A DNA stretch of 64,000 bases from Candidatus Heimdallarchaeum endolithica (GCA_021513715.1 CP084167.1:1888001-1952000), one strand, 5' to 3'; shown: positions 981 to 58,266, numbered from the stretch's first letter. Numbers and translations: made by a program. The notes: generated by a model not told the origin, from the sequence alone.

Positions 981-1048
981 TTAAATAAAAATGTATCACT
1001 ACATTTTTATTACTTTATTCTTTTTATTTTTCGCGAACAGTGATTTAT

Positions 1049-3559
1049 ATGACACTAATTTTTGAACCACAAGAGATAGAGCTAATAGACGAAACCATTC
1101 CTACTATAACACTATCTTCTGAAACAACAGACTATCGTTATGGAAAATCACCATTAAATAGATCAATTGAGGAACTTCTCAATTATGGTATTATCAATTT
1201 AGATAAACCACCAAATCCAACAAGTCACGAAGTCGTGAGTTTTGTAAAGAAAATTTTAGAAATTCCTCGAGCTGGACATTCTGGTACTCTTGACCCTGCA
1301 GTTACTGGTGTCTTACCTATTGCCCTAAATAAAGCAACAAGAATTCTGGATACTTTACTTTTAGCAGGAAAGGAATATGTTTCTATAATGCAAGTACATC
1401 AAGACATCCCTCATGATAAAATAAAGGAAGTTATGCTTGAATATGTTGGAGAAATCTTCCAGAGACCCCCAATTAGAGCAAGTGTAAAAAGAGTTCTAAG
1501 AAAACGTAAAATCTATGAATTGAAAATTTTGGAAATAGATGATCGCTTAGTATTATTCAAAATGTCATGCCAAGCAGGAACATATGTACGAAAACTGTGT
1601 TTACATCCAACAACGCAAATTTTAACTAAGAATGGTTCAATATCTATCACAGATTTTTATAAGAATCCAACAATAGTTCTTACTTTTAATGATGGTAAGG
1701 TGGTTGAAAAACCCCCTTCTGCTGTTCAAAAAATCAAGGCACCATCACAATTAATAAAGATAACAATGGAATCTGGTATTAGTTTTATAGCAACACCTGA
1801 TCATGAGATGCTTAAGTCCACTTTAGATGGATATGTTATGACTGAAGTTAAAGACTTAAAAAAGGGAGACTATTTAGTAAAAAGTTTGAATTATCATCTA
1901 CCAAATAAGAAACTGATAATAGCGGATTTGCTGGACGATGAGTTCTTAATTGACCAACAAAAACTTAAGGAAAAATGCAAAGAGGCTTTTATTCAAAAAT
2001 ATGGCAGTATAAGAGCTATGAGTGAGGCTTTAAGAATTGATAGAAAAGTGTTTTACTCTGATTCTAGAATCGCAATTAAAATTAAACATCTAAAATTGGC
2101 AGGAATATATGATAAAGTCAAAAAAAACATTCATCGCTTCAAATTCACAAAAGGCATGACTGTAGATTTGAAGAATCTTAATGACGAGTTCTTTTATTTA
2201 TTGGGTTTAATAGCTTCGGATGGAAATAATACAAAGGAAAAAGGTACTGTCCGCTATACGAGGATTATGTTTCACAATAAAGAAAAAGCACTAATTGACA
2301 AATTCATTGAAATTTGTGAGAGACTATTTCCTAATGTACATTATACAGTGAAAAAACATGAAAATGATATTTGGGGTGTTGTTACCTCAAATTCTTTAAT
2401 GGCGTCCATAGCAGCTTCATTAGGGATAAAAAGTCCCAAAAAACATTCAGATTTTTCACCTTTGCTTTATATTGAACCGATACTTCTAAAAGCATACTTG
2501 AAAGGTTATTTTGATGGAGATGGTTCAGCTTATTATAAGAAGTATCCTAATCACATTAAAACACGAATATCCTTGTTTACATTTAGTGAAAAAGAAGCAG
2601 TAGTTCTTCATAAAATCCTCCTCAAATTGAGTATTGAAAATAGAATCTTCTCAAGGACACGAACCAAAAAAGGAAAAGTAGAAGTTTATTATGAAGTATC
2701 TATAGAGATAATTGGAGCTCAACATAAATTCATTAAAGAAATTGGTTCAAATCATCCTAATAAAATGAGAATACTGGAGAAAATAAGATCAATTGAACAA
2801 GAACATGAATATGGAAACAACTATCATGTGGGATTGCATTTTAATAAAATGTTATCTGAAAATAAGACTGAGCTAAAAAGAATAATGGGAGGAAATTTAA
2901 GCAGACTATTGGGAAAAAACATACCTGTCACTAGAAGATTTTACAAACGAGCTTCTTCTTTCGTGAATCTACCTTCACTTGATGATTTCATTATCGAAAA
3001 AATAGAGAAAATAGAAACTGTCGACAGCTGTGATTATGTTTATGATATGACAGTGCCAAACACACACAATTTCCTTATTGAAACTGGATATGTGTCTTCA
3101 AACTGTCACGACATAGGTCAATCTTTAGGTTGTGGAGCCCATATGAAAGAACTGCGAAGAATAAGAACGGGACCATTTACAGAGGAAACTTTCTTGTCCA
3201 CTTTACATGACCTTTATGACGCTTTTATGTGGTATAAAGAAGAAAAAGATGAAATCCCACTGAGAAATATTATTTTGCCTATGGAGTTTGCAGTAAAACA
3301 TTTACCAAAAATTTATGTTAAAGACAATGCAGTAGACACTATATGTCACGGAGCACCTGTTGCTTTACCTGCAATTTCCAAAATAACTACAAATTTCAAG
3401 GAAGGAGATACAGTAGCAATTCACACGCTAAAAAACGAATTAGTAGCTTTAGGAGATGCTCAAATAGATGCAACTAAACTAGAAAAAATGGATTCTGGCC
3501 TTATTGTTAAAACAAAAAGAGTTCTAATGCCAACAGGCACATACCCCAAATCAAATTAA
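1049..3559 (+). CDS. cbf5: H/ACA RNA-guided pseudouridine synthase Cbf5 (TruB family) containing an intein
   Basis: INLDKP..PTSHEV, GHSGTLDP catalytic motif, GTYVRKL/CHDIG motif split by an insert, C-terminal PUA domain. Confidence 0.95.
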   Translation: MTLIFEPQEIELIDETIPTITLSSETTDYRYGKSPLNRSIEELLNYGIINLDKPPNPTSHEVVSFVKKILEIPRAGHSGTLDPAVTGVLPIALNKATRILDTLLLAGKEYVSIMQVHQDIPHDKIKEVMLEYVGEIFQRPPIRASVKRVLRKRKIYELKILEIDDRLVLFKMSCQAGTYVRKLCLHPTTQILTKNGSISITDFYKNPTIVLTFNDGKVVEKPPSAVQKIKAPSQLIKITMESGISFIATPDHEMLKSTLDGYVMTEVKDLKKGDYLVKSLNYHLPNKKLIIADLLDDEFLIDQQKLKEKCKEAFIQKYGSIRAMSEALRIDRKVFYSDSRIAIKIKHLKLAGIYDKVKKNIHRFKFTKGMTVDLKNLNDEFFYLLGLIASDGNNTKEKGTVRYTRIMFHNKEKALIDKFIEICERLFPNVHYTVKKHENDIWGVVTSNSLMASIAASLGIKSPKKHSDFSPLLYIEPILLKAYLKGYFDGDGSAYYKKYPNHIKTRISLFTFSEKEAVVLHKILLKLSIENRIFSRTRTKKGKVEVYYEVSIEIIGAQHKFIKEIGSNHPNKMRILEKIRSIEQEHEYGNNYHVGLHFNKMLSENKTELKRIMGGNLSRLLGKNIPVTRRFYKRASSFVNLPSLDDFIIEKIEKIETVDSCDYVYDMTVPNTHNFLIETGYVSSNCHDIGQSLGCGAHMKELRRIRTGPFTEETFLSTLHDLYDAFMWYKEEKDEIPLRNIILPMEFAVKHLPKIYVKDNAVDTICHGAPVALPAISKITTNFKEGDTVAIHTLKNELVALGDAQIDATKLEKMDSGLIVKTKRVLMPTGTYPKSN
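1598..3103 (+). mobile_element. Intein (502 aa) with LAGLIDADG homing endonuclease in Cbf5
   Basis: Starts CLHPTT, block B ATPDHEML, LAGLIDADG-type motifs LLGLIASDG and YLKGYFDGDG, ends VYDMTVPNTHNF...VSSN followed by Cys+1. Confidence 0.93.
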
Positions 3560-5330: not shown

Positions 5331-8300
5331 TTAGCTAAAGAACGTATCCAAACTTTTTATTCCCTCAACTTCTTTCCATGAGATTCCAAGTGTATCCAAT
5401 AGTTGTCCAAATGTTGATTGTACTAACTCTTTCATTTTTTTCACATCTACATCAGATTTAGTAGCAAGTTCTATAGGTTTGACAGAACACTCATCACTTA
5501 AACTAATCTTATCATTTAGTAGACCGGGAGGAACTTTTATCTTAAAGGGTTTTGTTTTAACGAATGTTATAGTTGAGCCTACGGCTATATCACTATTAGG
5601 ATTTTTAATTAATAACTGTATTGCTGCTTGTAATGGCTGTGTCCAACTCTCATAATCTTTTAATCTTTTGGAGAGAGTAACTGAAATAGCTAGATCTTCA
5701 AGCTTAAACGTTCTTTCGTCGAGCCTCCTCATTGTTCGTTGAACAATACTGATTATTTTCTCTTTTGCAGTCTCCAATTCTGCAGGAGATTTAACATCTG
5801 AAAGAATTTTCAAAACTCTATCAAAAGCACGTTTGATCAGATTAGGAGTATTCTTTTTCTTACCCATCAGACCTTTTACAATTGGTGTCCCTTTTGTTGT
5901 TATCCCAAAGTAGTTTTTCTTTCTATCGGAAAGGCAACAATACCTAAAAACATAGTCAATTCCTAATTCAATTTGAAAGTTTTCTAAGCTCCACTGTTTT
6001 AGTTCCTCAATATCACTTTGCTTTGGTTGATAAACAAATATACTATCTGTATCACCATACAACACAGGAATACCTAAATCTTTTTCACAGTGTTCTTTTG
6101 TTTTTGAAATTGCTTCTCTAGCTAAAGCAGTAGTTGATTCAGCAACAGGAGGACAATATAAAGCAAAGTTATCGGAACCTAAAACACCATATGAATTATG
6201 AACAACTATACCAGTGTCGCTCACAAACCAACCGTTTGACGTTTGAATGTCGTATACTGGTTCATTTGAAGAAGCACTTATATGCTTAATTTTAGTAGGA
6301 GTAGTCCCATTATAAGATAAGCCTTGCTTTTTGTTTTTGTATGGCTCACAAGGAAGTTCTACAATATGATATGTGGTCTCAATTATCTTATCATTTTCAA
6401 TGCGTTCATCTCGATAAATATTTACATTTTTTCCAGTTGCATTTGCAATCATAACAAGATCAGTTGCAAATTGTTTGTTTACAGTTGTACATCGAATTTT
6501 ATTACTATCTATGCATCCTTCATCATTTCTGAAATATTCATCAATGAAAATCTTGGCTCTATGTTTATCTAACAACTGAAGTGGAATTCTCCTGATGTTT
6601 ATGTAATTTCCACAAAGTTGCTCTAAAATCCTTGACCAAACTTTAGAGTTTATCACAAATCCTTTTTCACTAACAGTATAATTCAGATTCAGACGAGATA
6701 AAATTTTATTAACCCTTTCCCAATTTTCAGAACTTTTTTCTTGTAATTGAGAAATGAATGTAAAACTTTTCTTAACACTACCTACTGCAATAACCCAAGC
6801 AATTAACCGAATAAAATCATCATCAATGGATATTTTAGCATTGTACCAGATATTCTCATCAACCCCGATTGTAACTTTTAGCTCTTCTGAAAGCTCTTTT
6901 CTTATGGTATCTCTCTCAGATTCTGTGAGTTCATTCCATTTTGCTTTATACATTTTTAATGTTTCATTGTAAGTAAAGCATTCATTATCAACATTTATAC
7001 TAGCTTTTTTAACTACTTGATTGGATTGTTTAAAGTATTTTTCATAATTATCTCTTGAAAGTCCTATATACAGTTCTTGATCCGAAACTAAATCTGGAAT
7101 AAAGAGTGTTTTAGGAGGGTTTTCAGTTAATGGAATATTTTGAACAACAAAAACTTCATCATCAATTTTCAGTTCTCCTGCATACTTTTCACCTACTTGG
7201 AAATTTGAGAGTAATACAGGAATTTTATGGTTGGCTGTTAGTCTAATAGTTCTCCCATCTTCAAGCGTAATTTTTATCAAATCAGAAGGTGGCTTTTCCC
7301 AGTAACCTTCTATATCCACGAATATAGGAGAACCAAATGTATCATCTTTTTCTCTAGAAATGGACAATATTTGAAAATCTTGCCAACTATCTGCAAGTTT
7401 ACCAATTGAAAGTTTAGTCACTAATTTTGTTTTTTTATTTCTCACAATAACTTCAGAATCATAGGGAAGGCAAGCATTTATAAGAACTTTCAGTGAAGAT
7501 TGCATCACATTACTTAAAACACGTAATGCTTTATCGACAGTTTGATCCTTTGCTTTTTTCTTAAACCAGTAAACTCTAATATCTCGGATAAAGCCAATCA
7601 ACATGGACATTATTCCAACTTTTTTTGTACATACCCAGTGATTTGTTTCCGGTATTTTGTTGTTTTCTTTACATTCTTTATGGTTACATCTAATAGTTTC
7701 ATAAGAAAGATTACGTGTCTTGATTATTGAAGGGTAAAGACTGGCATAATCCAGAACATAAACGTCCCACCAGACTCCAGCTTTGGGTTGAATAACAATA
7801 GCTCCCTGGTATTTCTTTCCTTTTATAATCGCCTCAGTAGATACCTCTCCTTTTGCTCTTAGTATGTCTTCTGGCAAAGGAATGAGGTAGTTCCTTTTTC
7901 TGTGTTCATAATAAAACCAATTTTGTATCCAAATACTTACACTTGAACGGATAAAATCATCGATAGGCATCTTTGTCATTCTTGAAAGCATAAAGATAAG
8001 TTCCATCACTTGATTTTGACTAAAAGTAGTAAGTTCAAGAGTTATTACTGCATCCTGAGCGTTATATTCTATGAGTTCTTCTAAACTCAGATCCCAAATA
8101 TCTTTTTCATGTTCGACCTTATGTTTACCCAGGAGAGTTGAACCTAACTCATCTAAAGTTACTCGGTCATATTTCGCTCCAAAAGCATAAATTCTCATTG
8201 ATGCTTGTCTGAAAAAACGATAAAGATCAAGATGCAATCCATATTCAAGATAAGTATCATTTTGAGTTGAAGTTGTAGTTATAATCGGATTTTTGATGTT

Positions 8301-9341
8301 ATTTATGCCCAAGTTTTTTGCACGTTTGTTTAAGTAAGGTAAGTCAAAATTATCTCCATTAAAAGTTATAATTATAGGATATTTATTTATTTTCTTAAAA
8401 ACAGCTTCAATCAATTCTTTTTCATTTTCAAATTCAATAACTTTTATTTTCTCATCTTTTTTCTGAATAGGCGTTTTTTCTTCATTTAATATAAATATTG
8501 ACACATCACTACTTGTGTCTGCAAAGCCCACGGAGATAATTTTATCATTAGCTACCTTGGGATCAGGAATACGCCCTTTATCACTTTGTACTTCAATATC
8601 AAGAGAACAACGGGGAATATCAGGAATTGGTGAAAAAAAAGTGGGAAAATAAGATAAAACTAATTCATGTATTTCACTAGGTTGACTAGAGAAAATTTTT
8701 GTTATTTCATCCTTAATGGAAGGATCGATTTCTGGTTCTACTTGAATTATTTTTCCGTCCTTAATTTCATATAGCAATCCCGGAACAAGTAAATTATCGT
8801 AGATATAATTAAGGTGGTAACGGATATTAGCTTCATAGGAGGGGCTGATAAATTCTCTGAAACTATTTGATTTTCCACCTATGGCTAGAGGATTAGTTCC
8901 ATAAACTTTTGTAAGAGAAATAGAACTATCAGTTAACAAATTGTACTTTTCTATAGTTTCACAGCCAACGAATTCCTTATTACCTTGTAGGATACTTTCT
9001 ACTTCACTAATTGTTTTTGTAGTCAACAAATAGGGTTTATGCCCTGATTTGTCGTAAAAACGGTAAACTTTTCCATCTTCAGGATTATAAAATTTCATGT
9101 AGGCTTGCTCCTTTTCACCATCATAATTTACCGAAATAAGATAAGATGCAGGAAGATCAGAATGGACAACCAAAATATTAGAATTATCATCAAGAAAAGT
9201 GATATTACTATCTGAATCGCTGGAAGACGATTCTTTAACCTTAACCTCTTTGATTTCTGAAGCCTTTGTAAGAGAAGAGAATACCTTATTTTTCTCTATA
9301 TTGGGGCGAGACAAAAATTTCTCTAAATTCATTTGACCCAT
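5331..9341 (-). CDS. polB1: Family B DNA polymerase, PolB1-like, containing an intein
   Basis: Exo motifs LDIEV and FNGDNFDLPY; Pol motifs DYASLYPS, KVLINA/SYG, YGDTDS, KKNY; N-terminal YDG...GHKPY segment typical of PolB1. Confidence 0.92.
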   Translation of the reverse strand: MGQMNLEKFLSRPNIEKNKVFSSLTKASEIKEVKVKESSSSDSDSNITFLDDNSNILVVHSDLPASYLISVNYDGEKEQAYMKFYNPEDGKVYRFYDKSGHKPYLLTTKTISEVESILQGNKEFVGCETIEKYNLLTDSSISLTKVYGTNPLAIGGKSNSFREFISPSYEANIRYHLNYIYDNLLVPGLLYEIKDGKIIQVEPEIDPSIKDEITKIFSSQPSEIHELVLSYFPTFFSPIPDIPRCSLDIEVQSDKGRIPDPKVANDKIISVGFADTSSDVSIFILNEEKTPIQKKDEKIKVIEFENEKELIEAVFKKINKYPIIITFNGDNFDLPYLNKRAKNLGINNIKNPIITTTSTQNDTYLEYGLHLDLYRFFRQASMRIYAFGAKYDRVTLDELGSTLLGKHKVEHEKDIWDLSLEELIEYNAQDAVITLELTTFSQNQVMELIFMLSRMTKMPIDDFIRSSVSIWIQNWFYYEHRKRNYLIPLPEDILRAKGEVSTEAIIKGKKYQGAIVIQPKAGVWWDVYVLDYASLYPSIIKTRNLSYETIRCNHKECKENNKIPETNHWVCTKKVGIMSMLIGFIRDIRVYWFKKKAKDQTVDKALRVLSNVMQSSLKVLINACLPYDSEVIVRNKKTKLVTKLSIGKLADSWQDFQILSISREKDDTFGSPIFVDIEGYWEKPPSDLIKITLEDGRTIRLTANHKIPVLLSNFQVGEKYAGELKIDDEVFVVQNIPLTENPPKTLFIPDLVSDQELYIGLSRDNYEKYFKQSNQVVKKASINVDNECFTYNETLKMYKAKWNELTESERDTIRKELSEELKVTIGVDENIWYNAKISIDDDFIRLIAWVIAVGSVKKSFTFISQLQEKSSENWERVNKILSRLNLNYTVSEKGFVINSKVWSRILEQLCGNYINIRRIPLQLLDKHRAKIFIDEYFRNDEGCIDSNKIRCTTVNKQFATDLVMIANATGKNVNIYRDERIENDKIIETTYHIVELPCEPYKNKKQGLSYNGTTPTKIKHISASSNEPVYDIQTSNGWFVSDTGIVVHNSYGVLGSDNFALYCPPVAESTTALAREAISKTKEHCEKDLGIPVLYGDTDSIFVYQPKQSDIEELKQWSLENFQIELGIDYVFRYCCLSDRKKNYFGITTKGTPIVKGLMGKKKNTPNLIKRAFDRVLKILSDVKSPAELETAKEKIISIVQRTMRRLDERTFKLEDLAISVTLSKRLKDYESWTQPLQAAIQLLIKNPNSDIAVGSTITFVKTKPFKIKVPPGLLNDKISLSDECSVKPIELATKSDVDVKKMKELVQSTFGQLLDTLGISWKEVEGIKSLDTFFS
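6195..7472 (-). mobile_element. Intein (426 aa) in PolB1 motif B with a degenerate LAGLIDADG domain
   Basis: Starts CLPYDS, block B LTANHKI, ends VYDIQT...IVVHN followed by Ser+1; endonuclease motifs read LIAWVIAVG and IDEYFRNDEG. Confidence 0.92.
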
Positions 9342-9463: not shown

Positions 9464-10906
9464 TTATTTCTTGATACCCAAGAAACCAGCTAATGCAGGA
9501 ACTGTTTCTGCTACTTGCTCACTGGCAAAAATCTCATAATATTGCTTCAAGATACCGACAGTAAGCAAGATACCCGTACCCGTCCCTAATGCGCCTAGAA
9601 AGTCAGCAAAGGCTGCTAATACACCTATAAAGAATCCGCCTAACCAAGCTGCAGTAGGAATATAGCGATCCAAGTATTTTTCGACAATACGAGGGTTACG
9701 ACGAAAACCAGGGATTTGCATATCAGCATCAAGTAATTGCTTGGCAACATTACGAGAACTCATACCTGCAGTATCAATCCAAATCCTAGAAAAGATACCA
9801 CAGAGGATAACCATCAAAATAAAGTACGTAACAGCTTGCCAAGGTTGTTCAACTATTTGCTCCGGACCATATGGGGCAGTAGTAAAGGAAGCTAAACCAT
9901 TGATTGGCCGGCTTTGCTGTGTATCACCTATAGTATCCCATTCACCAAAAAAGGTGACCAAGAATCCACGAATGCCAGGATCGTTGGAATCCCATTTATT
10001 ATCAAGAAGGTTACTGATAAAGTAAATATTGGCAAATAGGGCACTAACTAAAATAACTGGAATGTTAGAGGTATAGAGAAATTTAATAGGATAACGAGCA
10101 GGCATCTTATATTGACTGTGTTGAACAGGAATCTCGATGCGAATACCATCAACATACATAACCATAGCAAAAACAACAATGGTAGCTACCAATCCAATAA
10201 TGTCAGGAGTACGACCAGTACGAGTGATAGATTGCATAACAGTATTTTCATCACGAATAATGCTCTGGAAAAAGGCGATAACAGCGCCACGAGCTAAACC
10301 ATACTGATCAGGGGTGAGATTGAACATACCATCAACAATGTTAAAACTAACACTAGTGGCAATAAAGAGAGAAATACCACTACCTAAACCATAACCCTTC
10401 TGGATGACTTCATCCATCATCATGATAACAAAACCAGCAGCAACAAGCTGAACTAAAAAAAGAGTCTTTTGAGCGAAAACTAAATCCTCACCATAAGCAC
10501 CACCAAGAATATAAGCAAGAGCCTCAAAAAGAAGCATAAGAATAGACATAATCTTTTGAGCACCAGTGTACAAAGCACGCTCTTCAGGGTTACTAAAATC
10601 AACCTTGATAATTTGGGAACCAACGAGGAGTTGAAAAATTAAGCCAGCAGTAACGATAGGTCCAATACCTAGTTCTGCTAATGTTCCTCTTTGCGATGCT
10701 AATATCGCTCTCATTGCATAGAATGGGTCTGTTCCTTGTGTTTCTTTAAATCCCACTAGTGGTATGTTTAGCATTGCCAGATATAGTATCAATATTCCGA
10801 ATGTCCAAAATAATTTTGCTTTAAACGACAGTTTTTTATCTGGTCTTTTTATCTCGAATGTAAAACGTTGAAATGGTTTGAACATAGTTAGGAATTTACT
10901 TGCCAC
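9464..10906 (-). CDS. secY: Preprotein translocase SecY/Sec61alpha
   Basis: RGTLAELGIGPIVTA, KGYGLGSGISLFIA, YPIKFLYTSNIP, IPGFR, GTGILL; GTG start with GAGGAG SD. Confidence 0.97.
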   Translation of the reverse strand: MASKFLTMFKPFQRFTFEIKRPDKKLSFKAKLFWTFGILILYLAMLNIPLVGFKETQGTDPFYAMRAILASQRGTLAELGIGPIVTAGLIFQLLVGSQIIKVDFSNPEERALYTGAQKIMSILMLLFEALAYILGGAYGEDLVFAQKTLFLVQLVAAGFVIMMMDEVIQKGYGLGSGISLFIATSVSFNIVDGMFNLTPDQYGLARGAVIAFFQSIIRDENTVMQSITRTGRTPDIIGLVATIVVFAMVMYVDGIRIEIPVQHSQYKMPARYPIKFLYTSNIPVILVSALFANIYFISNLLDNKWDSNDPGIRGFLVTFFGEWDTIGDTQQSRPINGLASFTTAPYGPEQIVEQPWQAVTYFILMVILCGIFSRIWIDTAGMSSRNVAKQLLDADMQIPGFRRNPRIVEKYLDRYIPTAAWLGGFFIGVLAAFADFLGALGTGTGILLTVGILKQYYEIFASEQVAETVPALAGFLGIKK

Positions 10907-11742
10907 TTTTTACTCCTCTTTTTTTCTATTTCTTTCTCTGTCTTTTCTGAATTCTCGTACCTTTAAAAGCCTTTTCTCTTTGTTCTTATTTTTTACTTTT
11001 TTTTTATTTTTTCTTCATTTCTATTTTTATCGTCTCCCATATTCTCATGTACATTTTGATTGTTAGATTTATTATTTTTTCATTTTTCTTCATTTTCATG
11101 TCTTGTATGATACTTATTTTTTTAGATTTTATAGCTCCTGGGTTGTTTACATAGTCACTTGCATCAAGGTAATCATCTTTCATTCCAAAGATGTTATCCA
11201 GAACAATATAGTAATTTTTTACAAATTCTAGTGCTTTTTCATATCCCATTAGGCTGTATTGGTTCATCGGGTATATTACTTTTTCTTCTTCTGTAAACGC
11301 CTTTTTCCATTCTCTGACATTTTTCCTTGCATTATCTTGAGGTAATCGATAGAATCTTGCTGCTGGTTTTTCTTCTATTGCTTGTGCTGTACATTGTATT
11401 TTGAACACAATTATATTTTCTGTTCCTAAATCGTTTATAGTTAGTTTTAATTTTTCATTTTCAGTTTCTGCTGCTTTTACGTATGCTAGATTTATTATTG
11501 CATTCAACATTTCTATTGTTATTCCTTTTTCTTCGTTTGTCTTTCCGAATATACTATCTGGTGAGAACGAATATCTTTTAAGGTTATATAATTTTGAAAA
11601 ATCTACTTTTATCAATCCTTTTTCTTCTATTATTTCTTTTTCCATTTTTTTTATTATATTCAGTATATTTTTTTCTATTTCTTCGTATTCGAAGTTAAAT
11701 CCTGGTATATCTTTTATTTTATTTTTCAGATCTTTAGTTGTT
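10670..11742. repeat. Direct repeat copy 1: secY 5' 237 bp + promoter region + 3' end of large unknown gene
   Basis: Aligns with 13376-~14450; secY part differs at 15 of 237 nt by manual count. Confidence 0.92.
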
Positions 11743-11745
11743 GAA
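11004..11745 (-). pseudogene. 5'-truncated paralog of the C-terminal ~240 aa of the large island gene
   Basis: Shares KDL..DIPGF, IVFKIQC..Q.IEEKPAAR.YRL, MNQYSLMGY, LDNIFG.K.DYLDAS and LTIKMYMRIW with 13726-17082; homology runs upstream of the internal Met at 11645 with no start codon. Confidence 0.8.
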
Positions 11746-12033
11746 ATATTAAAAAAATTAAAAGAAATTGAATAACTTTCTCAAAGTTGATTTATAATCA
11801 CAATATATGACTTTTAAAAAAAGAATATAAAAAAATCCAATAATAACAGGGGCTCCAAACAGTGAAAAAAAAGTGTAGAATATGTAAATACTTAGATGAA
11901 ATCTATAACAAAAATAAAAATATTTCAAAAAAGGTAGAAGTTAGTTGGAAAACACTATTTAAGCGATAATGCTAACACCCTATTTCTTTAATCAAAAATT
12001 ATTTAAAAAAAAGCAGTGATAATATAATTGATA

Positions 12034-13281
12034 ATGACAATACAGATAATTGGAAAAACAAAATACGGTACAACAGTTATTAAGAAAATAGATACAGAAA
12101 CAAAGGAAGTCTCTTTGAAAGATGAGGGGTTGCAATATATCGATTTAACACCATTAGAAAAATGTACTAATCTAACTACATTGTCTTTAAATGCCAATCC
12201 GTTACGTGAGGTTGATTTACCGTCATTAGAGAAATGTACAAGTCTAACCACATTGAATTTGAATGCAAATTTGTTACAAGAGATAAATTTAACACCATTA
12301 GAAAAATGTACTAATCTAACCAAAGTGTATTTGGGGGATAATCTGTTACAAGAGGTTGATTTATCGCCCCTAGAAAAATGTGCAAAAATAGAATTTTTGG
12401 ATTTGAGGGAGAATCAATTAAAAAAATTAGATTTAAGGTCATTAAAAAAATGTACTAATCTAACAAAAGTGGATTTGGCTATAAATCAGTTACAAGAGAT
12501 ATATTTACCGTTATTAGAAAAATGTACAAAACTAACTGAATTGGATTTAAGCAGCAATCAGTTAGAAAATATCGACTTAAGTCCATTAGAAAAATGTACA
12601 AAACTAACTGAATTGGATTTAAGCAGCAATCAGTTAGAAAATATCGACTTAAGTCCATTAGAAAAATGTACAAAACTAACTGAATTATATTTAAGCAGCA
12701 ATCAGTTAGAAAATATCGACTTAAGTCCATTAGAAAAATGTACAAAACTAACTAAATTATATTTAAGCAGCAATCAGTTAGAAAATATCGACTTAAGTCC
12801 ATTAGAAAAATGTACAAAACTAACTGAATTATATTTAAGCAGCAATCAGTTAGAAAATATCGACTTAAGTCCATTAGAAAAATGTACAAAACTAACTAAA
12901 TTGAATTTAAGCAACAATCAGTTAGAAAATATCGACTTAAGTCCATTAGAAAAATGTACAAAACTAACTAAATTATATTTAAGCAACAATCAGTTAGAAA
13001 ATATCGACTTATGTCCATTAGAAAAATGTACAAAACTAACTGAATTGGATTTAAGCAACAATCAGTTACTATGTTTTATCGATTTAACACCATTAGAAAA
13101 ATGTACAAAACTAACTAAATTGGATTTAAGCAGCAATATTTTAGAAGATATCGATTTAACACCATTAGAAAAATGTACAAAACTAACAAGATTGTATTTA
13201 GATGGAAATCAGTTACATGAATTGGATTTAACACCATTAAAAGACCTTATTGAAAAAGATTTATTGTTCATTTATCGATAA
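12034..13281 (+). CDS. Leucine-rich repeat protein, 15 x 24-aa LRR, no evident signal peptide
   Basis: Consensus LEKCTKLTELxLSSNQLENIDLSP. Confidence 0.92.
   Translation: MTIQIIGKTKYGTTVIKKIDTETKEVSLKDEGLQYIDLTPLEKCTNLTTLSLNANPLREVDLPSLEKCTSLTTLNLNANLLQEINLTPLEKCTNLTKVYLGDNLLQEVDLSPLEKCAKIEFLDLRENQLKKLDLRSLKKCTNLTKVDLAINQLQEIYLPLLEKCTKLTELDLSSNQLENIDLSPLEKCTKLTELDLSSNQLENIDLSPLEKCTKLTELYLSSNQLENIDLSPLEKCTKLTKLYLSSNQLENIDLSPLEKCTKLTELYLSSNQLENIDLSPLEKCTKLTKLNLSNNQLENIDLSPLEKCTKLTKLYLSNNQLENIDLCPLEKCTKLTELDLSNNQLLCFIDLTPLEKCTKLTKLDLSSNILEDIDLTPLEKCTKLTRLYLDGNQLHELDLTPLKDLIEKDLLFIYR
12154..13236 (+). repeat. 72-nt coding tandem repeat, 15 units; units at 12514-13017 nearly identical
   Basis: ttagaaaaatgtacaaaactaact recurs at 12514, 12586, 12658 and onward. 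Confidence 0.95.
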
Positions 13282-13357
13282 TGAAGGTACGAGATTCAGA
13301 GAGGAAAAAGAAACAGTGTGGAAACGATAACAAGAGAGGATATAAACACTTAAACAA

Positions 13358-13612
13358 TTAATGATTAGTAAAAAATAGTTCTGCTAATGTTCCTCTTTGC
13401 GATGCTAGTATCGCTCTCATTGCATAGAATGGGTCTGTTCCTTGTGTTTCTTTAAATCCCACTAGGGGTATGTTTAGCATTGCTAGATATAGTATCAGTA
13501 TTCCGAATGTCCAAAATAATTTTGCTTTAAACGACAGTTTACGTTCGGGTTTTTTTACCTCGAATGTAAATCGTTGAAATGGTTTGAAAATAGCTAAGAA
13601 TTTACTTGCCAC
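13358..13612 (-). pseudogene. secY: Truncated secY 5' copy (79 SecY codons + 5 unrelated codons)
   Basis: MASKFLAIFKPFQRF...SQRGTLAEL then FFTNH-stop; 73 of 79 aa identical to full secY. Confidence 0.93.
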
Positions 13613-14450
13613 TTTTTACTCCTCTTTTTTTCTTTTTCTTTTCTCTGTTTTTTTCAGAAAAATCGTACATTTAAAAGGCTTTTCTCTTTGTTCTTATTTC
13701 TCTTTTTCCTTATCATGTTTCATTCTTAATGTTTTGACATCTCTACTGTTAGAGCCGCCCATATTCTCATATACATTTTAATAGTTAGCGTTATTACTTT
13801 TTCGTTTTCCTTCACCTTAATATTTTGTTGTATATTTATTTTTTTGGATTGTATGTCCTCTGGGTAGTTAACATAGTGACTTGCATCAAGATAATCCTCT
13901 TTTATTCCAAAAATGTTATCAAGTATGATATAATAATCCTTTACTAGTTTTAGTGCGTTTTTATAACCCATTAGACTATATTGGTTCATAGAATACAATA
14001 TTTTATCATCTTCATCATATAATTCTTTCAATGATCTAACATACTTACTTGTAGTATCGTAGTTTAATCTATATAAGCGTGCTGCTGGTTTTTCTTCGAT
14101 TACTTGTGTCCCACATTGGATTTTAAACACTATTGCATTTTCTCCTCTAATATCTTTCCGATTTAGCATTAATTTTTCATTTCCCCTTTCTGCTGCTTTT
14201 ACGTATGCTAGTGTTATTATAGAGTTTAATATTTCCATTGTCATTCCTATCTTTTCAAAAGTATTACCGAAATTGGTATCCGACAAAAACAGATATTTTA
14301 TACTGTTATACGTTTCTGAAAATTCTACTTTTACCTTCTTTTTTTCTTCAATCTGTTTGATTATTTTTTGTATATTATTTGCTATATATTTATAATCATA
14401 TCTAAAACCAGGGATATCTTGCATTAATTTTTTCAAATCTTTACTAGTTA
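13376..14450. repeat. Direct repeat copy 2 (see 10670-11742)
   Basis: Starts with the same tagttctgctaatgttcctctttgcgatgcta; identity drops in the ORF part. Confidence 0.92.
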
Positions 14451-17400
14451 TTTCTTTTATTAACTCAAAAAGTTCTTTTGCTTCTCCTTCGTTATTATGT
14501 CCGAATAGGTATATTCTTATTGTTGGTGGTTTCTTATCATAAAGGATCGACACGAATTTATATCGATTAAATTTTTGTCCTCTTAGTCCATTAACAAAAA
14601 GATAATAGTATTCTTTTGGGTTAGTGGTTGGCATTATCAATATTTGGTCTTTAAAATGATCTTTTAGTTTTTTATTAAAATCTTTAAGTGTATTTATATA
14701 TCTATTATAGATTCTTGGGCATTCTGGTCTTATGAAACCTTTTATTCCAGGTTTTGTGAAGTTTATAAGATCTGTTTTGCTCATTATTTCATCCATAATT
14801 CTTTTTAATTCTCCCTTTTCTCCTTGATATTTTCCGAACATTGTTTTTATATTTTCATTTAGCACTAAATTGTCCACGTTTTCAAGCAATTTTCCCAGAT
14901 CTTTTAGATATATTATTCTTCCTTTTACATCCGCATTTTTTCTTGTAAGCGCTGAAAGTATATTATCATCATTTGGTAATATAAATTCTGCTATTATATC
15001 TACCTGATATCTATATTCCTTTCTTTTATTCTTTATTGCTATTATTTCCCCTTCCGATATTTTTCCTTGTTCTTGTTCTAGAAACGCTACTAAATACCCC
15101 AGCGGATTCAAAGTTTCGTCTAAGTATTTTGTTACACTTTCAGGTTTACTTGCGTTAACTGGGTATTTAGCCATACAAATCCCATTTAGTGCATATATTA
15201 GTTTATTTATTCTTTCGTGAGGATTAAATAGGGTGCTCATTTCTTTTAATCTGTTCAATTCCTTCAGGTAATCTGATAAGATCTTTGCTAATTCGGTTAT
15301 TATTTCATTTGTCAATTCTGTTGATGCAGAATAATAGAAATTCATTATTTTTTCAAGTATAATATATTCATCATTTGGTAAGTTCTCTTTTTTAACTATA
15401 GATTCTCCTTTTACTAGTATATCCAAATAGTTCTTTATTTCTATAATAGCATCTTCTACAGTCATATGATTTTTATCTATTATAATTTCTCCTTTTTCAT
15501 TACTTTCTATTTCAAAAGCTAGGACATTTCGATTTCTTAAATATTGACTGAATTTTAGAGCGCTGTCTGATATAAAAGCCCACACAATTTCTACTGTGAT
15601 ACTTAGCTCCTCTGCTATCTTTCTTAGCATTTTAAGATTAGAATATTCTGTATTCGTCACATTATTTAATTCATCTTTTAAGCTAACTATTTGTTTTTCC
15701 GTTCCTTCGAATCCAGTATATTTATCGTAATTGAGAGGTGAAAATAGTTTCCAATAAATAGATTTACCTTGTTTGTCTTTAATTATATTTCCATCTTTAT
15801 CTTGCAAGATTAATACAGGAATAAGTTCCCCATTTTTGTTAATCACTCTTATTCTTGACCACGTGTTCAATCCTATTCCGTTTTCAAGTAAAGTTTTTTC
15901 TTCTTTAGGTGAATATAATGTATCTACTAATTCTTTAGTAGTTACAGAAACAACTTTTTTTTGTTTTATTTGTATTTGATATAGTTGATATTTCGTTGGT
16001 ATATGATATAATGCTAGAATTTTTGCATGACTATTCCCTTGTATATAATTTTTATTAAAGTCATCCAATGTTGATATTAAAAACTCATTTGATTTAGCAC
16101 CATAGATGAGAACAAATTTTCCATACTGATTGGATTGTGCAGTATAAAAAGCTTGAGCTTCTTCTCCGAAATCTTGCTTGAAATTTTCATTTAAATTTGC
16201 TTTGTTAATAACGTTTAAAACGTTATGAAATTTTATCTTAAGGTATTCATTATTATTGTCTTCCACATCTGTTCTCTTTATGAGTACATAATCTTCAGCA
16301 GGATTATAGATATTTCCTTCTTCATCCTTAATTTCAAATAAACCAAAGTTTGTAGAATAACCTGTCGCCGCATGAAATATCAATTTAAAAGCAAATAATA
16401 TTTTAGCCATTTCATCTATAGTTAATTTTGTAGATTGTCCAGTAAAAAGCGAACCAACACCTAACAAAAATGTTGATAGAAAACCAGTATTATAAGCAAT
16501 TTGTTTTGGTTCATAATCTTTTGTCGCTAATCCATCATATATTTCAGATAATAATATTTTTCCCTTTGATAAATCGTAATCATAAACAAAGTCATCCATT
16601 AATTTCCTTTCCAAAACATCGAGTTTCTTTGATGTTGATTCGCTATAAACGTAACTCCATGCCGGAAGTCCACTTGTAAATTTTGATTCTGAAAAAACAC
16701 CATTTCCTATTATGAGGTCAATTCCTGTTGTAGAACTGAATTTGATGTTGTTTTGCGATTCCAATTCCATGGTGCTCTTTATAATATAATCCTTAATATT
16801 AACTTCAAACGGGTTATCATCTCCTTCCTTTAAATCAGATTTAATCTTTAAGAAGAAATTAGAACCGTCAAAGCTCTCATACATTATTTTATCTGTTTTG
16901 CGAAACAATAACTTCAAGTAATACATTACCTTTACCGCGCATTCTCTATTTGTTATTTCATTTTCTTGATTCTTTATGATGTCAAACATATATTTCGCGA
17001 ATTCAGAATAGAAGAAAATACGTTGCAATAATGTATAAATTGGGATAGCAGATGAAATAAATGTTTTAGCTATATAAGACAACGGAGCTTCTTCTCTTGA
17101 ATCAAATATAGAAACAAGATATGATTCAGAGTAACCTTTTTCTTTTAACCAGTCGAGGAATCTAATATCTAAGTCTTGTTCAAAAAATTTGTGTATCTTC
17201 TTTTTTTATCCATTTACCCAAATATTTTGGTAATTCCAAGTAAAAAACATAAATCTCAGGCGTCCTATAGTGTTTATATATAATTTCGTTTATTTCTTCA
17301 TCAACAAGTTTCGTTATTTCATTTTCTGATAAAAAAGGGCTTTCATTTCTAATTTTCTTCAATAAATTTTTTCTTGTTTCTTCAATATCTATCAAGTTGC

Positions 17401-17509
17401 TCCTAATAAGAAAAATTTCTTCTCTATTTATTGTGTTCAATGCATTCATTTTTGCAGTAATTTCATAATTTTTGCGTAATAGTAACTCACTCGATTCGAT
17501 TTTTTTCAC
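13726..17509 (-). pseudogene. Large unknown gene (~1260 aa) split by a 1-nt frameshift into the 109-aa and 1118-aa ORFs
   Basis: Removing one base from the A6 run at 17182-17187 reads DTQIF-EQDLDIRFLDWLKEKG...EEAP-LSYIAK in one frame; no domain recognised. Confidence 0.75.
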
Positions 17510-17544
17510 CTTTCAAGTAATTTTATTTTATTGCCGTTTTATCT

Positions 17545-17836
17545 TTTTGTTAGAGAAAAGACTGTGAGATTTTTCTCTTTTTTGTAATTTCATACTGTTT
17601 CATAACTTAAGGAAAAGTATTTCAGCAAAGAATATTCTATTAAACATATAATTCCACTTGTGATAGTCTCTGTGGTTAATATAAAGTTTAAATTATTTTT
17701 TAGAAAGCCAATAATTATTAATTAAACTGTGTTTTTGAAACCATTTTTTAAGCACAAAACTAACAACAATATTCAAATTTTAACTTTTCTATAAGGTTTG
17801 TTCATCTGTTGAATGAACAGTCTTTTTCTAACAAAA
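17545..17836. repeat. ~20-bp inverted repeats flanking a 292-bp non-coding segment (MITE-like)
   Basis: TTTTGTTAGAGAAAAGACTGT (17545-17565) vs reverse complement of 17817-17836 TTTTGTTAGAAAAAGACTGT, one gap. Confidence 0.55.
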
Positions 17837-17864: not shown

Positions 17865-18308
17865 TTATTCTGGAAGAACTACTTTTCCTCCAGCTTCTTC
17901 TATTTTCTTTATTGCACGTTCTGAAGCCTTTTTCACTTTTATTTCTGCAGGAGAAGTTATTGCTCCTTGAGCTAGAATCTTAGTGTATCCTAGTGCTCCT
18001 AGATCGATAACAATATTTTTCCCTTTTTTCTCAGCTTGTCCTTTAGCTATTAAATTAGGTATCATAGCGTCTATCTGGGAGATATTGATAACTTTATCTT
18101 TTTTGACCACTACAGGTGGCCGAGTAAAGCCATGTTTTCCTATAGGTTTTCGTCGACCTAGAATTACTAGCATCTTGTGTCTAGTTTTGGGTCCACATTT
18201 TCCTACACCTCCGCGAATACCGCTTTTTTTGTGTCCTTTTTGTTTTCCCCATCCATGATGCTGAGAACCTCTAAGTCTTCTTACCCTTTTCTTAAATCTT
18301 ACTACCAT
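17865..18308 (-). CDS. rpl15: 50S ribosomal protein uL15
   Basis: RRLRGSQHHGWG, GIRGGVG, KIEEAGG. Confidence 0.95.
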   Translation of the reverse strand: MVVRFKKRVRRLRGSQHHGWGKQKGHKKSGIRGGVGKCGPKTRHKMLVILGRRKPIGKHGFTRPPVVVKKDKVINISQIDAMIPNLIAKGQAEKKGKNIVIDLGALGYTKILAQGAITSPAEIKVKKASERAIKKIEEAGGKVVLPE

Positions 18309-18313
18309 TTTTC

Positions 18314-18799
18314 TCACGCCATCCTCACAATTAGTTCATTTATTGCTTCTCCTCTGTAGCCTAGATCTCCTCCTTCATTGTATCCTCTTTTCACACTCTT
18401 GAACCCTTTTCTTGGTGGATGTAATCTGAAGAATTTCTTCAGTCCTGGAACATCACTCAATTTTGCTTTTCCTTCGTATACTGCTTTTGCAAAATCTTTT
18501 ATGCTTTTGTACTCTGAATTTTCTTTTATGTATTCATCAGTAAGTCTTTGTTTTCCTCTTAGTTCTCCTCTTTTTTCTAGTAAATATGTTAGGGTTTCAA
18601 GATTTATTTCTCCATATGTAATGGTATCTTTTGCTCTTTTTAGCATACCCATATATGATGGTGTATTAGGTAGTATAGTCATATAGTTTTTTCTTCTAAT
18701 GTTAAGCATATCTAGTGTTTCTTTTATTTTATAATAAAATCCTACAGTTCCTCTTATTCTTATTACTGCTAGCATTGTCTTTTTTTCCTCTTTGCTCAT
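18314..18799 (-). CDS. rpl30: 50S ribosomal protein uL30
   Basis: AVIRIRG, FRLHPPRKG, GDLGYRGEAINELI. Confidence 0.95.
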   Translation of the reverse strand: MSKEEKKTMLAVIRIRGTVGFYYKIKETLDMLNIRRKNYMTILPNTPSYMGMLKRAKDTITYGEINLETLTYLLEKRGELRGKQRLTDEYIKENSEYKSIKDFAKAVYEGKAKLSDVPGLKKFFRLHPPRKGFKSVKRGYNEGGDLGYRGEAINELIVRMA

Positions 18800-18809
18800 T
18801 TTTTCTCAC

Positions 18810-19448
18810 CTATTGTTTTGTCCAATCGAATGGTGCTACTACAGAGTAAGTGTTTTTTAATGCTTCAAAAGTTGCTTTTGCGAAGTTGTTTGTTGTTCTT
18901 GTTTCTCCGAATGTTTTACTCCACACATCGTCTATTCCTGCTAATCTCAGAACTGTTTTTGCCACATCTCCCACCACCAATCCTAGTCCTCTTGGTGCTG
19001 GAATCAGCACTACTTTTGTTGACCCGCATTTTCCTTCTACTTTATAAGGTACTGTGTGGTTTCCTCCACAAGAACATTCCCAGCTTCCACAAGCTCTTCT
19101 TACTGGTCTAACGTTCAATTTTGCATTTGTTATGGCTTTCTTTATTGCAGGTCCTATTTCTTTAAGTTTTGCCTCTCCTACGCCTACATAACCATTCTTG
19201 TTTCCTACCACTACAGTAGCTCTAAATCTTCTTTTTCTCCCTGCATCTGATTGTCTTTGGACTAGTTTAATATCAATAACTTCATCTTCAAGATCAGGTA
19301 ATAAAATATCTACTATTTCTGCTTCTTGTATTTTTAGGTTTTGTGCAAATATTTCGTCGATGCTTGTTATTTGTCCCTCTTTTACCATTCTTCCCAATCT
19401 AGTCAGTGGTTCCCATTCTTCATAATCTAAAAACTCATTACTACTCAT
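18810..19448 (-). CDS. rps5: 30S ribosomal protein uS5
   Basis: [33 protein letters not shown]. Confidence 0.96.
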
Positions 19449-19449
19449 T

Positions 19450-20106
19450 TTACTCACTTTCCTCTATTTTTGTTTTTGTTTCCTCGAAGTAAGTCTGTAT
19501 TTCCTCTGGCTTTTTATTCACTTGAAGATATTTACCAAAGTACCTATTATACTTCTCTTTATCTTCTTTTGCCAAGAGTCTTCCGTAATTTGCTATATGC
19601 TCTCCTCTAATTCGCTCTTCATCTGGGATCATTTTTTCTCCATAAGGTATTTCTACTCCAGCATCGACTATTCCTTTCAACGCTGCAAATAACCTTGTTT
19701 TTGGTAATGCTTCCAAGGTTCCAATATCTAATATCGCTTCATCTATATCCGCTTTTAGCGCTTTTTTGCCTGCTAAAAATCCCGTTAGATAAGCTGCAGG
19801 CATATTGGATGTTGCTATGTCCCAACCGTATTGTGCTAAATCTTTTGATAACACTTGGGTGATTGTTTGGTCACCTCCTTGTTGGGATCGGATAAATTGA
19901 ATACGTAGAGCTTTATTAGAGGGGCGTATTGCAACACGAATCTTTCCTGATTTTAATAATCTTGTACGCTGCCCATAGTCTGTTTTTTGCTCTCTTCTTC
20001 GCCTGAAAGGCATCTTGTAGAGAGGACCATGCTTCTTTTGTGGTGGAGGACTTTTTCTCTTCCTATATCTCTTTCTTCGTTTCATTGCTTTTTTTGACAT
20101 TGACAT
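19450..20106 (-). CDS. rpl18: 50S ribosomal protein uL18 with basic N-terminal extension
   Basis: [28 protein letters not shown]. Confidence 0.95.
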
Positions 20107-55243: not shown

Positions 55244-55831
55244 ATGTCAAAAACCCATTTCATACTTTTTGCTCCACCAGCCCATTTATTTGAAAAAAAT
55301 GACATTTATACCCCTTTTTCTCGTTTTAGTTATATTCACGGAACGTATATTAAAGCGATAGCAGATTGTTTCTTTCTATCAAATAAATTTCGAGTTAATA
55401 ATACCTTACATTATTATACATTTTTCAAAAATAGCACGTATATTATCTCCTTTGATGGGAAGAAGTTAAGATATTTAGGACCCAGTTATTTTTCAGCCAG
55501 TAATCTGCTTCTTCGTGCTTTAACCCACATAGTCAACCCTCGTTCCAAGAAGGGAAAATTAACTCCGGGATTATCCGTGGAAAAGATAGAAGAAGAACCA
55601 TTTATTCATATCCAAAAAAAATATGAGAGTAAAGATATTTTTCTAATTACTAACAGAACACAAACGAAAAAAGAAGAAATCACTACCCAACTATCACATG
55701 AAGGAGCAGTTTTTTTATTTGGATATCAAAAAAAGAACAAAAATTGGAAAGAAATTTTCTTAGGGGACATCGAAATTGATGAACAAATGATATTACTTAA
55801 TTACTACCTCGATTTGTATAAATTATGTTAG
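55244..55831 (+). CDS. Divergent TrmY-like (tRNA pseudouridine-54 N1-methyltransferase) protein
   Basis: FFLSN.FR, ISFDG..LRYL.P, TPGLSV; overlaps pus10; SPOUT knot motifs poorly conserved. Confidence 0.6.
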   Translation: MSKTHFILFAPPAHLFEKNDIYTPFSRFSYIHGTYIKAIADCFFLSNKFRVNNTLHYYTFFKNSTYIISFDGKKLRYLGPSYFSASNLLLRALTHIVNPRSKKGKLTPGLSVEKIEEEPFIHIQKKYESKDIFLITNRTQTKKEEITTQLSHEGAVFLFGYQKKNKNWKEIFLGDIEIDEQMILLNYYLDLYKLC

Positions 55832-57141: not shown

Positions 57142-57300
57142 AAAGAGAAAAAGTAAAACAAGATTAAATACCAACTATTACAAATAAAATAAGAAAATAA
57201 TCTATAAATTAAAAAATAAGGAAAATCAATAAAATCAAAAAGCAAAAAGTTTTAATAAAGAATAAGAAGAAAAAAAATAGAAACAAAAACAACCAAAGAA

Positions 57301-57421
57301 GAGGGGATTGTCGAGCGGTCAAAGACGACAGGCTTAAGATCAGATTGCTTCTTTGAAAAAGGGCTAGAGAAGGAACCTGTTCCTTAGTGGTTCGGGAGTT
57401 CGAATCTCCCTCCCCTCACCA
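57301..57421 (+). tRNA. tRNA-Leu(TAA) with 36-nt intron (57339-57374) at 37/38; CCA encoded
   Basis: GAGGGGA/TCCCCTC, ACAGG/CCTGT, long variable arm, GGGAG-TTCGAAT-CTCCC. Confidence 0.9.
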
Positions 57422-57589
57422 CCACTAATAGAGAATTTTTAAAAAAAACTTTTCTAAATTAAAAGGGGGAAAAGAGAGAAGAGAAGATTAGGTTAAACTA
57501 CTCTCCTCAAAATAAATATAAGAAGTTAATATATAAGGATAGCAATTCTAGAATCCAAATTTCAGATAAACGATAGAAAAAAAATAGGG

Positions 57590-57868
57590 TTAATCATCAC
57601 TTATTTCAAGAAGGGTGATGATTTGTAATAGAATTGTTCTTGCATGCATTGGACAATTAGGATCTAAACTTATTTCTTCTAATATTTCTATAGCATTATT
57701 TGCTTTAACTGCAAGACTCAATTCAGGGTCGGGATCTCTTATAATTTCTAGTGAATTTGATGCTGCGCGTCTGATATTTCTTGGGACTGTAGTGTCTTCA
57801 GAAACTCGTTCAAGAAGCGCAATAGCTTCATTAATTTGTTCAACAGACTCATTATCCATTTCAAACAC
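57590..57868 (-). CDS. UPF0147 family protein
   Basis: D.TVPRNIRRAA, LEEIS.DPN.P.HART. Confidence 0.9.
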   Translation of the reverse strand: MFEMDNESVEQINEAIALLERVSEDTTVPRNIRRAASNSLEIIRDPDPELSLAVKANNAIEILEEISLDPNCPMHARTILLQIITLLEISDD

Positions 57869-58112
57869 CTCATAAATTTAAATGAAAGAACACACTACAC
57901 TTACCATCAGAGTTACTAGGTTTTTAACTTTTTCGAGAGAAGATTTTTAAATGAAAAAAAGAAGTTCAGAACTTTTTGCCTATAGAGATTAGAAATAGTA
58001 AAAAAAATAAATGAGGAAAGGATGATTAGATAAAAATCCCTAAACCAAAAATATAAAAAAGAGAGAAAAAAGAAAGTTTTGATAATATTCAAACTGTAAT
58101 ACAAACCGAGAT

Positions 58113-58188
58113 GGGCCAGTGGTCTAGTGGCTATGACATCTCCCTTACGCGGAGAGGATCGCAGGTTCAATTCCTGCTTGGCCCACCA
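58113..58188 (+). tRNA. tRNA-Val(TAC), no intron; CCA encoded
   Basis: GGGCCAG/TTGGCCC, TCTCC-CTTACGC-GGAGA, GCAGG-TTCAATT-CCTGC. Confidence 0.93.
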
Positions 58189-58266
58189 CATCTAAACAAA
58201 TAAAATCTTTCTTGTTAGTTGAATATTCATTCAGTAAAAATATTTTTAGGAGAGTGGAAGATTTTT

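Follow-up and report, generated by a model that had tools for sequence, protein, structure and literature searches.

Strand-switched adenine loss around secY, an aloposon target, and around other conserved genes of Candidatus Heimdallarchaeum endolithica

The secY gene of Candidatus Heimdallarchaeum endolithica switches from A-ending to T-ending codons between codons 79 and 80, and this site is one of about 20–30 sites of the genome that carry a symmetric gradient of adenine loss, mostly tRNA genes, the 16S rRNA gene's 3' end and conserved genes. The region of secY codons ~78-79, and at an earlier time the spacer between the L15 gene and secY, has served as an aloposon target, and the working secY consists of a 5' part from the element and a 3' part from the host, the target gene having been rebuilt by a captured arm that adjoins the 3' end of the giant gene. 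The scars are probably produced by recurrent element-directed cutting followed by error-prone fill-in, a reading to which we assign a probability of roughly 55% and for which only candidate enzymes can be named. The window analysed is a stretch of 64,000 nt (GCA_021513715.1, CP084167.1:1888001-1952000), to which coordinates refer unless a contig is given, and the genome (working label G000) is one contig of 3,326,783 bp with 30.8% GC. Other G numbers denote genomes and L numbers (L114, L123 and so on) denote contigs from other assemblies; G001 is the genome of the sister species, whose secY is annotated as that of Ca. Heimdallarchaeum aukensis.

The codon-usage switch and the chimeric structure of secY

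secY is located at 9464-10906 on the minus strand. The switch from A-ending to T-ending codons that the first-pass annotation had placed at codon 79/80 is confirmed by counts at the third positions of four-fold degenerate codons, which are 24 A, 2 T, 6 G and no C for codons 2-79 and 20 A, 126 T, 6 G and 32 C for codons 80-480 (Fisher p=3e-15). The change point near 10670 persists when amino acids are controlled by stratification by codon family (Cochran-Mantel-Haenszel chi2=72, p=2e-17), and a change-point scan gives the best split after codon 79, with a 2-unit interval of 79-83. The skew centre at the codon 79/80 boundary lies at 10652-10670, and 10670 is both the last base of codon 79 and the end of a direct repeat (10670-11742 and 13376-14449; 1.07 kb, 78% identical overall and 94% in the secY portion). 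T-ending codons are nearly exclusive only in codons 80-280 and then fade into polB, forming a gradient without a plateau. Thus, in the host part of secY (approximately codon 92 to 480, 9464-10633, minus strand), the coding strand, which is the outward strand, is depleted in A, and this depletion fades with distance. A comparable flip is found in none of 28 secY genes of other genera and families, while the sister species has one; the genome contains neither a second secY copy nor an inversion breakpoint. Codon bias of highly expressed genes was rejected as the cause of the flip, because ribosomal protein genes far from centres are neutral. Several family members contain a second, divergent (41-46%) secY-like gene (G017:C68, G024:C204, G021:C94, G015:C209 and G013:C54).

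Comparison with the sister species, in which L15 directly precedes secY, reveals positions 10984-17819 of the window as extra DNA, and this DNA contains relics of two aloposons. Aloposons of Ca. Heimdallarchaeum have been described as elements with tandem giant genes of 3,000-6,000 aa and four upstream genes including one for a MinD/ParA ATPase, inserted at tRNA sites only, and no integration mechanism was given (Wu et al. 2022, PMC8813620). The words secY and skew do not occur in that paper, and the legend of its Extended Data Fig. 7a, the part of the figure consulted, mentions a region with truncated giant-gene fragments that may be the secY locus. The older relic (13692-17819, minus strand) lies precisely in the L15-secY spacer with a 2-bp GT overlap and contains ORF1118 (13726-17082, minus strand) and ORF109 (17180-17509, minus strand), which represent a broken C-terminal module of a giant protein. 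The younger relic contains ORF213 (11004-11645, minus strand), the last 213 aa of the second giant protein of this aloposon, with 99.5% identity to the giant protein of L123, and, at its far end, an LRR cargo gene (12028-13281, plus strand). All three ORFs match the C-terminus of a giant protein (5,326 aa) that is encoded by another aloposon of this genome, and the C-terminal relics of the window are 33% identical to the giant protein of HeimV2.

Contigs of other assemblies represent other states of this locus. In L123 the same secY start comes after an intact giant gene of 5,335 aa, which is 83-99% identical to that of HeimV2 over residues 2000-3800. L121 contains a giant-gene end ahead of a host-type secY; in L114, L15 and secY codons 1-78 precede the same LRR gene, and the joint is shorter by 9 nt than that at 13376; L120 and L122 represent empty sites. 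ORF213, ORF1118 and the giant genes of L121 and L123 all stop approximately 100 bp ahead of the secY start. The site is therefore located directly downstream of the giant gene, as it is in aloposons, but here secY and the L15-secY spacer are targeted instead of a tRNA gene, so that the secY insert is a variant or relic and not a typical aloposon; the four upstream genes including MinD/ParA are absent from the relic in the window. As a relic, the element belongs to a known family, in this case with a protein-coding gene as its target. It is not one of the Campbell-type elements with a tyrosine integrase, because Phage_integrase (PF00589) gives a single match in G000 (29.7 kb, HeimV1) and none in G001, and because the left joints at 13376 and in L114 are imprecise, differing by the 9 nt. 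We infer that the older aloposon entered the L15-secY spacer precisely and then decayed, and that codon 79 was then the entry site of a second aloposon, which pushed the old 5' end aside, replaced it by its own and afterwards lost its interior. The LRR gene consists of homogenised 72-bp units, is nearly identical in another host species (L114), and has paralogues elsewhere in the genome. A homologue of ORF109 and ORF1118, the limits of which almost coincide with those of the older relic, is found in L035 (an ENA contig; 85% nucleotide identity) beside a different left flank, and two metagenome scans found no relatives. The window also contains inteins in Cbf5 and PolB (1040-3559 and 5331-9341); the Cbf5 intein has LAGLIDADG, and is absent in the sister species and present in L107 and L121.

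The element-borne arm (10634-10983, minus strand) comprises a 77-bp upstream region and secY codons 1 to ~91-94, and matches L123 to codon 91. Its N-terminus differs from the host type by 6 aa plus M91F. The displaced earlier 5' end of secY (codons 1-79) lies with its upstream region at 13376-13691 on the minus strand, with an attL-like junction at 13376. The fragment at 13376-13612 has no amino acid difference from the N-terminus of the sister species, whereas the functional copy has 6, and the latter differs from the arm of the intact L123 aloposon by 1 nt in codons 2-77. This result bears out the suggestion that the functional secY is a chimera, since the displaced fragment is of the sister type and the functional copy is the arm of the element. 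L123 has the variants of this genome through codon 91 and is of the host type from codon 95, indicating that the arm overshoots the end of the repeat, with the caveat that L115 and L123 belong to the same MAG bin and may be mis-binned. The arm and an endolithica host allele differ at 8 positions in codons 80-94, as compared with ~1-3 per 15 codons just upstream, and these differences may represent escape from cutting or a neighbouring scar. The secY alleles are mosaic.

The insert-free alleles of G001, L120 and L122 flip as well, at codon 85/86, and the chimera is therefore not the cause of the flip. The other suggestion of the first-pass annotation, that the junction is the centre of a strand-asymmetric process, also holds, because it is one of 18-26 centres of the same polarity; both alternatives are thus supported, as separate facts. 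That the flip marks the insertion site is correct for the target region but not for one exact base, since the skew centre of a related species (L118) is located in the L15-secY spacer; another related species (L107) has no centre. At 13376, for which the same polarity had been claimed, the direction agrees, with the right side T-rich, but the switch is weaker than at 10670; left of 13376, A/(A+T) is 0.73 in the LRR gene as compared with 0.39-0.61 in six paralogues.

Skew centres across the genome and the adenine-loss spectrum

A genome-wide scan of 289,102 four-fold A/T sites detects 18 centres that are A-rich on the left and T-rich on the right against 1 of the opposite sign at a contrast of 0.6, and 26 against 2 at a contrast of 0.5. 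The ORF caller is crude, and four of the listed centres (1049k, 2899k, 3097k and 3196k) coincide with repeat arrays and are likely to be artefacts. Approximately 15 of the 44 tRNA calls are centres. Other centres lie in or beside ileS, hypD, EF-2 and ABC-transporter genes, named from their translations, and at the 16S 3' end. Those within ileS, hypD and the 5' end of EF-2 are located at G000:C1 1824283-1827441, 2486655-2487764 and 2598020-2600251 respectively; the searches used find no element remnant at these three sites, which are predicted to be former or current targets. The centres recur in G001, in which 19 of 33 sampled tRNA genes are centres, a rate that is partly biased because some of the sample was picked near the centres of G000. 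Among other relatives, centres are found at 1 of 32 tRNA genes in G012, at none of 15 in G002, and at 1 of 23 in G005, which has at least one non-tRNA centre in addition; none is seen in G030. In G005, another genus of the family, the scars at tRNA-Trp and at the non-tRNA site are clear (L073 5696-10227 and L074 8625-13675), and the queries used detect no giant gene in this genome, which is 89% complete. A weak replichore-scale switch near cdc6/orc1 marks the probable main origin of G000 (C1 2100000-2150390).

The window contains two further centres. One, within 27671-35423, is at a tRNA gene (32213-32326; Ile by the call in the sister species), around which valS has T-ending codons, the adjacent gene A-ending codons and hef T-ending codons; the other, within 55825-60463, is at tRNA-Leu and tRNA-Val (57301-58188). 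A 540-bp insert beside the former tRNA (32334-32871) is absent at the site in the sister species and is 78% identical to DNA beside the tRNA-Tyr of that species; judged from this identity, it is probably a relic end common to two centres. The stranded other arm of the secY scar is represented by the L30-S5-L18 genes (18234-20000, minus strand), which have A-ending codons. The intervening L15 gene (17865-18317) is neutral at silent sites in the endolithica and aukensis types, though both of its neighbours are skewed, and is strongly skewed in L118. This neutrality may result from two opposing old centres or from recombinational replacement. L118 has a further centre in or just before the gene for ribosomal protein S5 (8248-8886), which is absent in endolithica and aukensis.

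T/(A+T) of the outward strand is 0.85-0.91 within 250 bp of a centre regardless of gene direction and 0.5 beyond 5-7 kb, and the decay is fitted by 0.44*exp(-d/2545), with a length of ~2.5 kb. On outward genes, G at the third position of Lys, Glu and Gln codons increases from 0.20 to 0.40 near centres, and the CGN fraction of Arg codons from 0.26 to 0.82. C at the third position of two-fold pyrimidine codons increases from 0.25 to 0.40 in inward genes and is unchanged in outward genes. This pattern indicates that the change is a loss of A (to G, C or T) and not a gain of T as such; effects of neighbouring bases are weak. Amino acid usage of outward genes near centres is shifted, with Lys at 0.67x and Ser at 1.44x, values that are confounded by gene identity.

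When aukensis alleles are used as the outgroup, the private changes of two endolithica-type strains within 3 kb downstream of secY comprise 40 from A (21 A>G, 13 A>C and 6 A>T) and 10 from T, as compared with 25 from A and 28 from T farther away (p=0.001). The excess of 40 over 10 indicates that the process is recent at secY. Of the nine changes in secY that are private to G000, seven are A>N (p=2e-4). Between the two species, silent sites diverge less near centres (0.175) than far away (0.26), from which it follows that the process is episodic, is limited by the targets that remain, or is masked by gene flow at these sites.

Each of the three intact aloposons ends on a centre at its giant gene, and relics of aloposon genes are present at tRNA-Pro(ggg), tRNA-Gly, tRNA-Lys, tRNA-Pro(tgg) and secY. 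Of nine such pieces or ends, eight are no more than 340 bp from a scan centre, the ninth being located at a tRNA gene with a strongly skewed host flank. Regions within 1 kb of a centre represent 2.5% of the genome; no p-value is given for this proximity, because the loci are few and clustered. Most centres, such as those at tRNA-Met and ileS, have no element remnant. Both host flanks and the giant-gene end, at which the target is rebuilt, are skewed, whereas the ParA end, at which the target is truncated, is not. This geometry agrees with a process directed at the intact target, either empty or rebuilt by the arm, and not an origin inside the element. The tyrosine-integrase site of HeimV1 shows weak contrast (0.60 vs 0.38). 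In the tRNA-Asn aloposon (G000:C1 2352059-2352249 and 2390390-2390608), the host tRNA gene is truncated in the T arm, and the giant-gene end has a full divergent tRNA-Asn gene with 100 bp of upstream DNA, inverted. An aloposon-like element of G002:C7 (L137-L139) contains a 5,235-aa giant gene (~18.9-34.6 kb), ParA and a winged-helix gene, and has no scar at the giant-gene end.

Candidate enzymes and alternative explanations

In the second giant protein, a hydrophobic segment at the N-terminus and a constant body are followed by a hydrophobic junction, which is shared, and by a C-terminal module of ~1,500 aa. At the junction, identity decreases from 87-100% to 44-79% between the aloposons at tRNA-Asn and tRNA-Gly, and from 83-99% to 23-48% between those at secY and the 16S end; the module thus tracks the integration target in each of two independent pairs. 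The motif G-I-D-L-x8-E-x-K, which is PD-(D/E)XK-like, is located at residues 120-134 of ORF1118 (16681-16725, minus strand), and its G, D, L, E and K are invariant in 6 homologues. G[IT]DL-x7-8-E-x-K is found 474-490 aa past the junction in four modules of two unrelated families, against a background of 0.02 per 1500 aa. The module is therefore a candidate PD-(D/E)XK-like nuclease on the evidence of its sequence; another candidate is a separate 305-aa PDDEXK_1 gene, which is part of the aloposon core. No Pfam or PDB profile matches the modules, and a weak match to the I-DmoI (LAGLIDADG) profile (E 0.5) was not accepted. The C-terminus of ORF1118, a domain downstream of the motif domain, was modelled as 600 aa (pLDDT 57) and 304 aa (pLDDT 83). 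Neither model gives a Foldseek match at E<=0.001, with Atlas TM <=0.32 by query; VIA for the 304-aa model gives a best Z of 5.1, with weak, recurring nucleotidyltransferase rows. A third aloposon has a scar and lacks the G[IT]DL..ExK motif, and the element of G002 (genus g2) also lacks the motif, the core nuclease not being found there. A homologue of the core nuclease in G030 lies in no element and has no scar.

Resection from a break removes the 5'-ended, outward strands, which are remade by fill-in. If an element-encoded, site-specific nuclease (the C-terminal module that is swapped between the secreted giant proteins, or the product of the small PD-(D/E)XK core gene) repeatedly cut the intact target over evolutionary time, and if the polymerase that fills in, most likely the single Y-family polymerase of the host, erred opposite template T, changes from A to another base would accumulate on the outward strands, symmetrically on either side of the cut and in numbers that diminish with tract length. 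Most cuts would be mended without insertion, scarring both host flanks, and some would end in capture of the element, through homology at the arm and an imprecise joint at the other end. The A>C and A>G products would later be converted to T under the AT bias of the genome, giving T-ending codons. The polymerase and repair set of the host consists of one DinB (Y-family), two PolBs and NucS, and is the same in relatives without scars. The main tension with this cut-and-fill-in model is the lower divergence near centres. The neutral L15 gene, the many centres with no element remnant, the scar of the aloposon that lacks the motif, the unscarred giant-gene element of G002, the presence of DinB in unscarred relatives and the weak context dependence also speak against it. 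A wider proposal, which we advance tentatively, is that aloposons are homing-like: the secreted protein of 5,000 aa would bring a swappable site-specific nuclease into neighbouring cells, where it cuts a conserved gene (a tRNA gene, the 16S end or secY) and the element enters with a captured, recoded arm, while the repair would leave strand-switched scars of adenine loss on a kilobase scale, which record past targets and alter codon and amino acid usage.

It is unlikely that the centres are instead sites of replication initiation or fork restart of the host, at which the outward strand is the leading strand with its own errors and which aloposons merely prefer. Archaeal origins are often located beside tRNA genes, empty centres exist, and divergence near centres is not raised, flux between A and T appearing redistributed and not added (A differs at 0.31 and T at 0.10, with a mean near the background of 0.21), all of which this explanation would accommodate. 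However, the genome has two replichores that switch near 2.1 Mb, with cdc6 at 2.15 Mb, and the signature of this switch is weak, long-range and of the T+G type as against the adenine-specific T+C type of the centres. The centre at secY is 250 kb away, with a local signature, and no replichore-scale switch beside cdc6/orc1 is found there. No common motif is visible by eye at tight centres. Centres lie inside secY, ileS and hypD, and shift between related species (spacer, 79/80, 85/86 or none), and a decay of 2.5 kb is short for origin skew.

Mutation of the flanks while they are single-stranded or copied during transfer of the element, in a conjugation-like or lateral-transduction-like manner, followed by recombination back into the chromosome, would make the scar a product of many rounds of co-conversion, with no free cutting of empty sites. 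The passage of the arm beyond the junction, by which variants of the donor reach another host type (L123 codons 80-91), the mosaic secY alleles and the raised interspecies identity near several sites (95-98%) are consistent with such transfer, but one-ended transfer explains neither the mirror-image scars on both flanks nor the unskewed ParA end, and relaxase or transfer domains are not found, so that this explanation is also improbable. In its A>G/C/T spectrum and its slight dependence on context, the scar resembles mutagenesis by diversity-generating retroelements (DGRs), and a DGR-like reverse transcriptase that copies outward transcripts with adenine errors, its cDNA replacing the chromosome, could produce it. 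This is very unlikely, because no RVT_1 match at E<=0.1, a search that a very divergent reverse transcriptase may escape, is found in either complete genome or in three relatives, because a template repeat is absent, and because the scar crosses operons and is indifferent to gene direction. That the flip is nothing but the joining of a 5' end of foreign codon usage to a host gene, or an assembly error, might be supposed from its coincidence with the repeat end and from the element-borne 5' end. The empty alleles that flip already refute it, the more unusual part is the 3' one, which forms a gradient, and both junctions recur in independent assemblies, leaving it hardly any credence.

Relation to known systems and significance

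The secY insert resembles known aloposons in its relic ORFs homologous to the C-terminus of the giant protein, in a target downstream of the giant gene and in the host genus, and differs from them in the protein-coding target rebuilt by an arm of ~350 bp, in the target-tracking C-terminal module and in the mutation scars. Adenine-specific A>N change is shared with DGRs, from which the present case differs in the lack of a reverse transcriptase and of a pair of template and variable repeats, and in its bidirectional, kilobase-scale extent in core genes. In kataegis and yeast single-stranded DNA hypermutation, strand-coordinated clusters of mutations arise at resected breaks, and in somatic hypermutation Pol eta mutates A:T pairs. 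These processes are similar in the switch of the mutated strand at the break, in kilobase tracts and in A>N on the newly made strand. However, they are C-directed (APOBEC) or WA-motif-directed and somatic, whereas the scars described here are heritable, depend weakly on context and are fixed in archaeal core genes.

The closest precedent is the report of SNP gradients around mobile introns, with mutagenic repair after cleavage by homing endonucleases (Repar and Warnecke 2017, PMC5378118). In the portion consulted, mutations likewise cluster at the target and decrease with distance, and co-conversion and error-prone break repair are given as candidate causes. What it describes is a rise in SNP density, whereas a base-specific, strand-switched bias is found here, and the silent sites are nearly saturated over kilobases at tens of loci without an intron. 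Replacement of the 5' end of a conserved gene, here an essential one, is shared with dusA-associated integrases (PMC4482086, in excerpt) and ICEs, from which the present element differs in its imprecise joints, in the overshoot of the arm beyond the junction and in the inversion of one arm, the tyrosine integrase of G000 being confined to HeimV1. Polymorphic toxins, as described in the abstract of PMC3482391, resemble the present system in that a giant protein is secreted, its body is constant, and beyond a hydrophobic junction its C-terminal module, which has a nuclease-like motif, can be swapped, with C-terminal pieces also occurring as orphans; here, by contrast, an arm of the target gene follows the module, a dedicated immunity gene is lacking, and the module tracks the integration site. 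No description of strand-switched adenine scars at integration sites was found in the literature covered, which leaves out most subscription papers.

Aloposons received their name without a mechanism, and testable candidates are now available, namely a module that tracks the target and has a nuclease motif, an arm that is captured, and a far side that is end-joined. The scars are a readable record of where aloposons acted, and they reveal a local, base-specific mutation pressure strong enough to bring silent sites to ~90:10. The genes that are hit include secY and those for ribosomal proteins, aminoacyl-tRNA synthetases and EF-2, which serve as markers for the placement of Asgard archaea with respect to eukaryotes. 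The module would represent a new enzyme family if it is a site-specific nuclease that can be retargeted.
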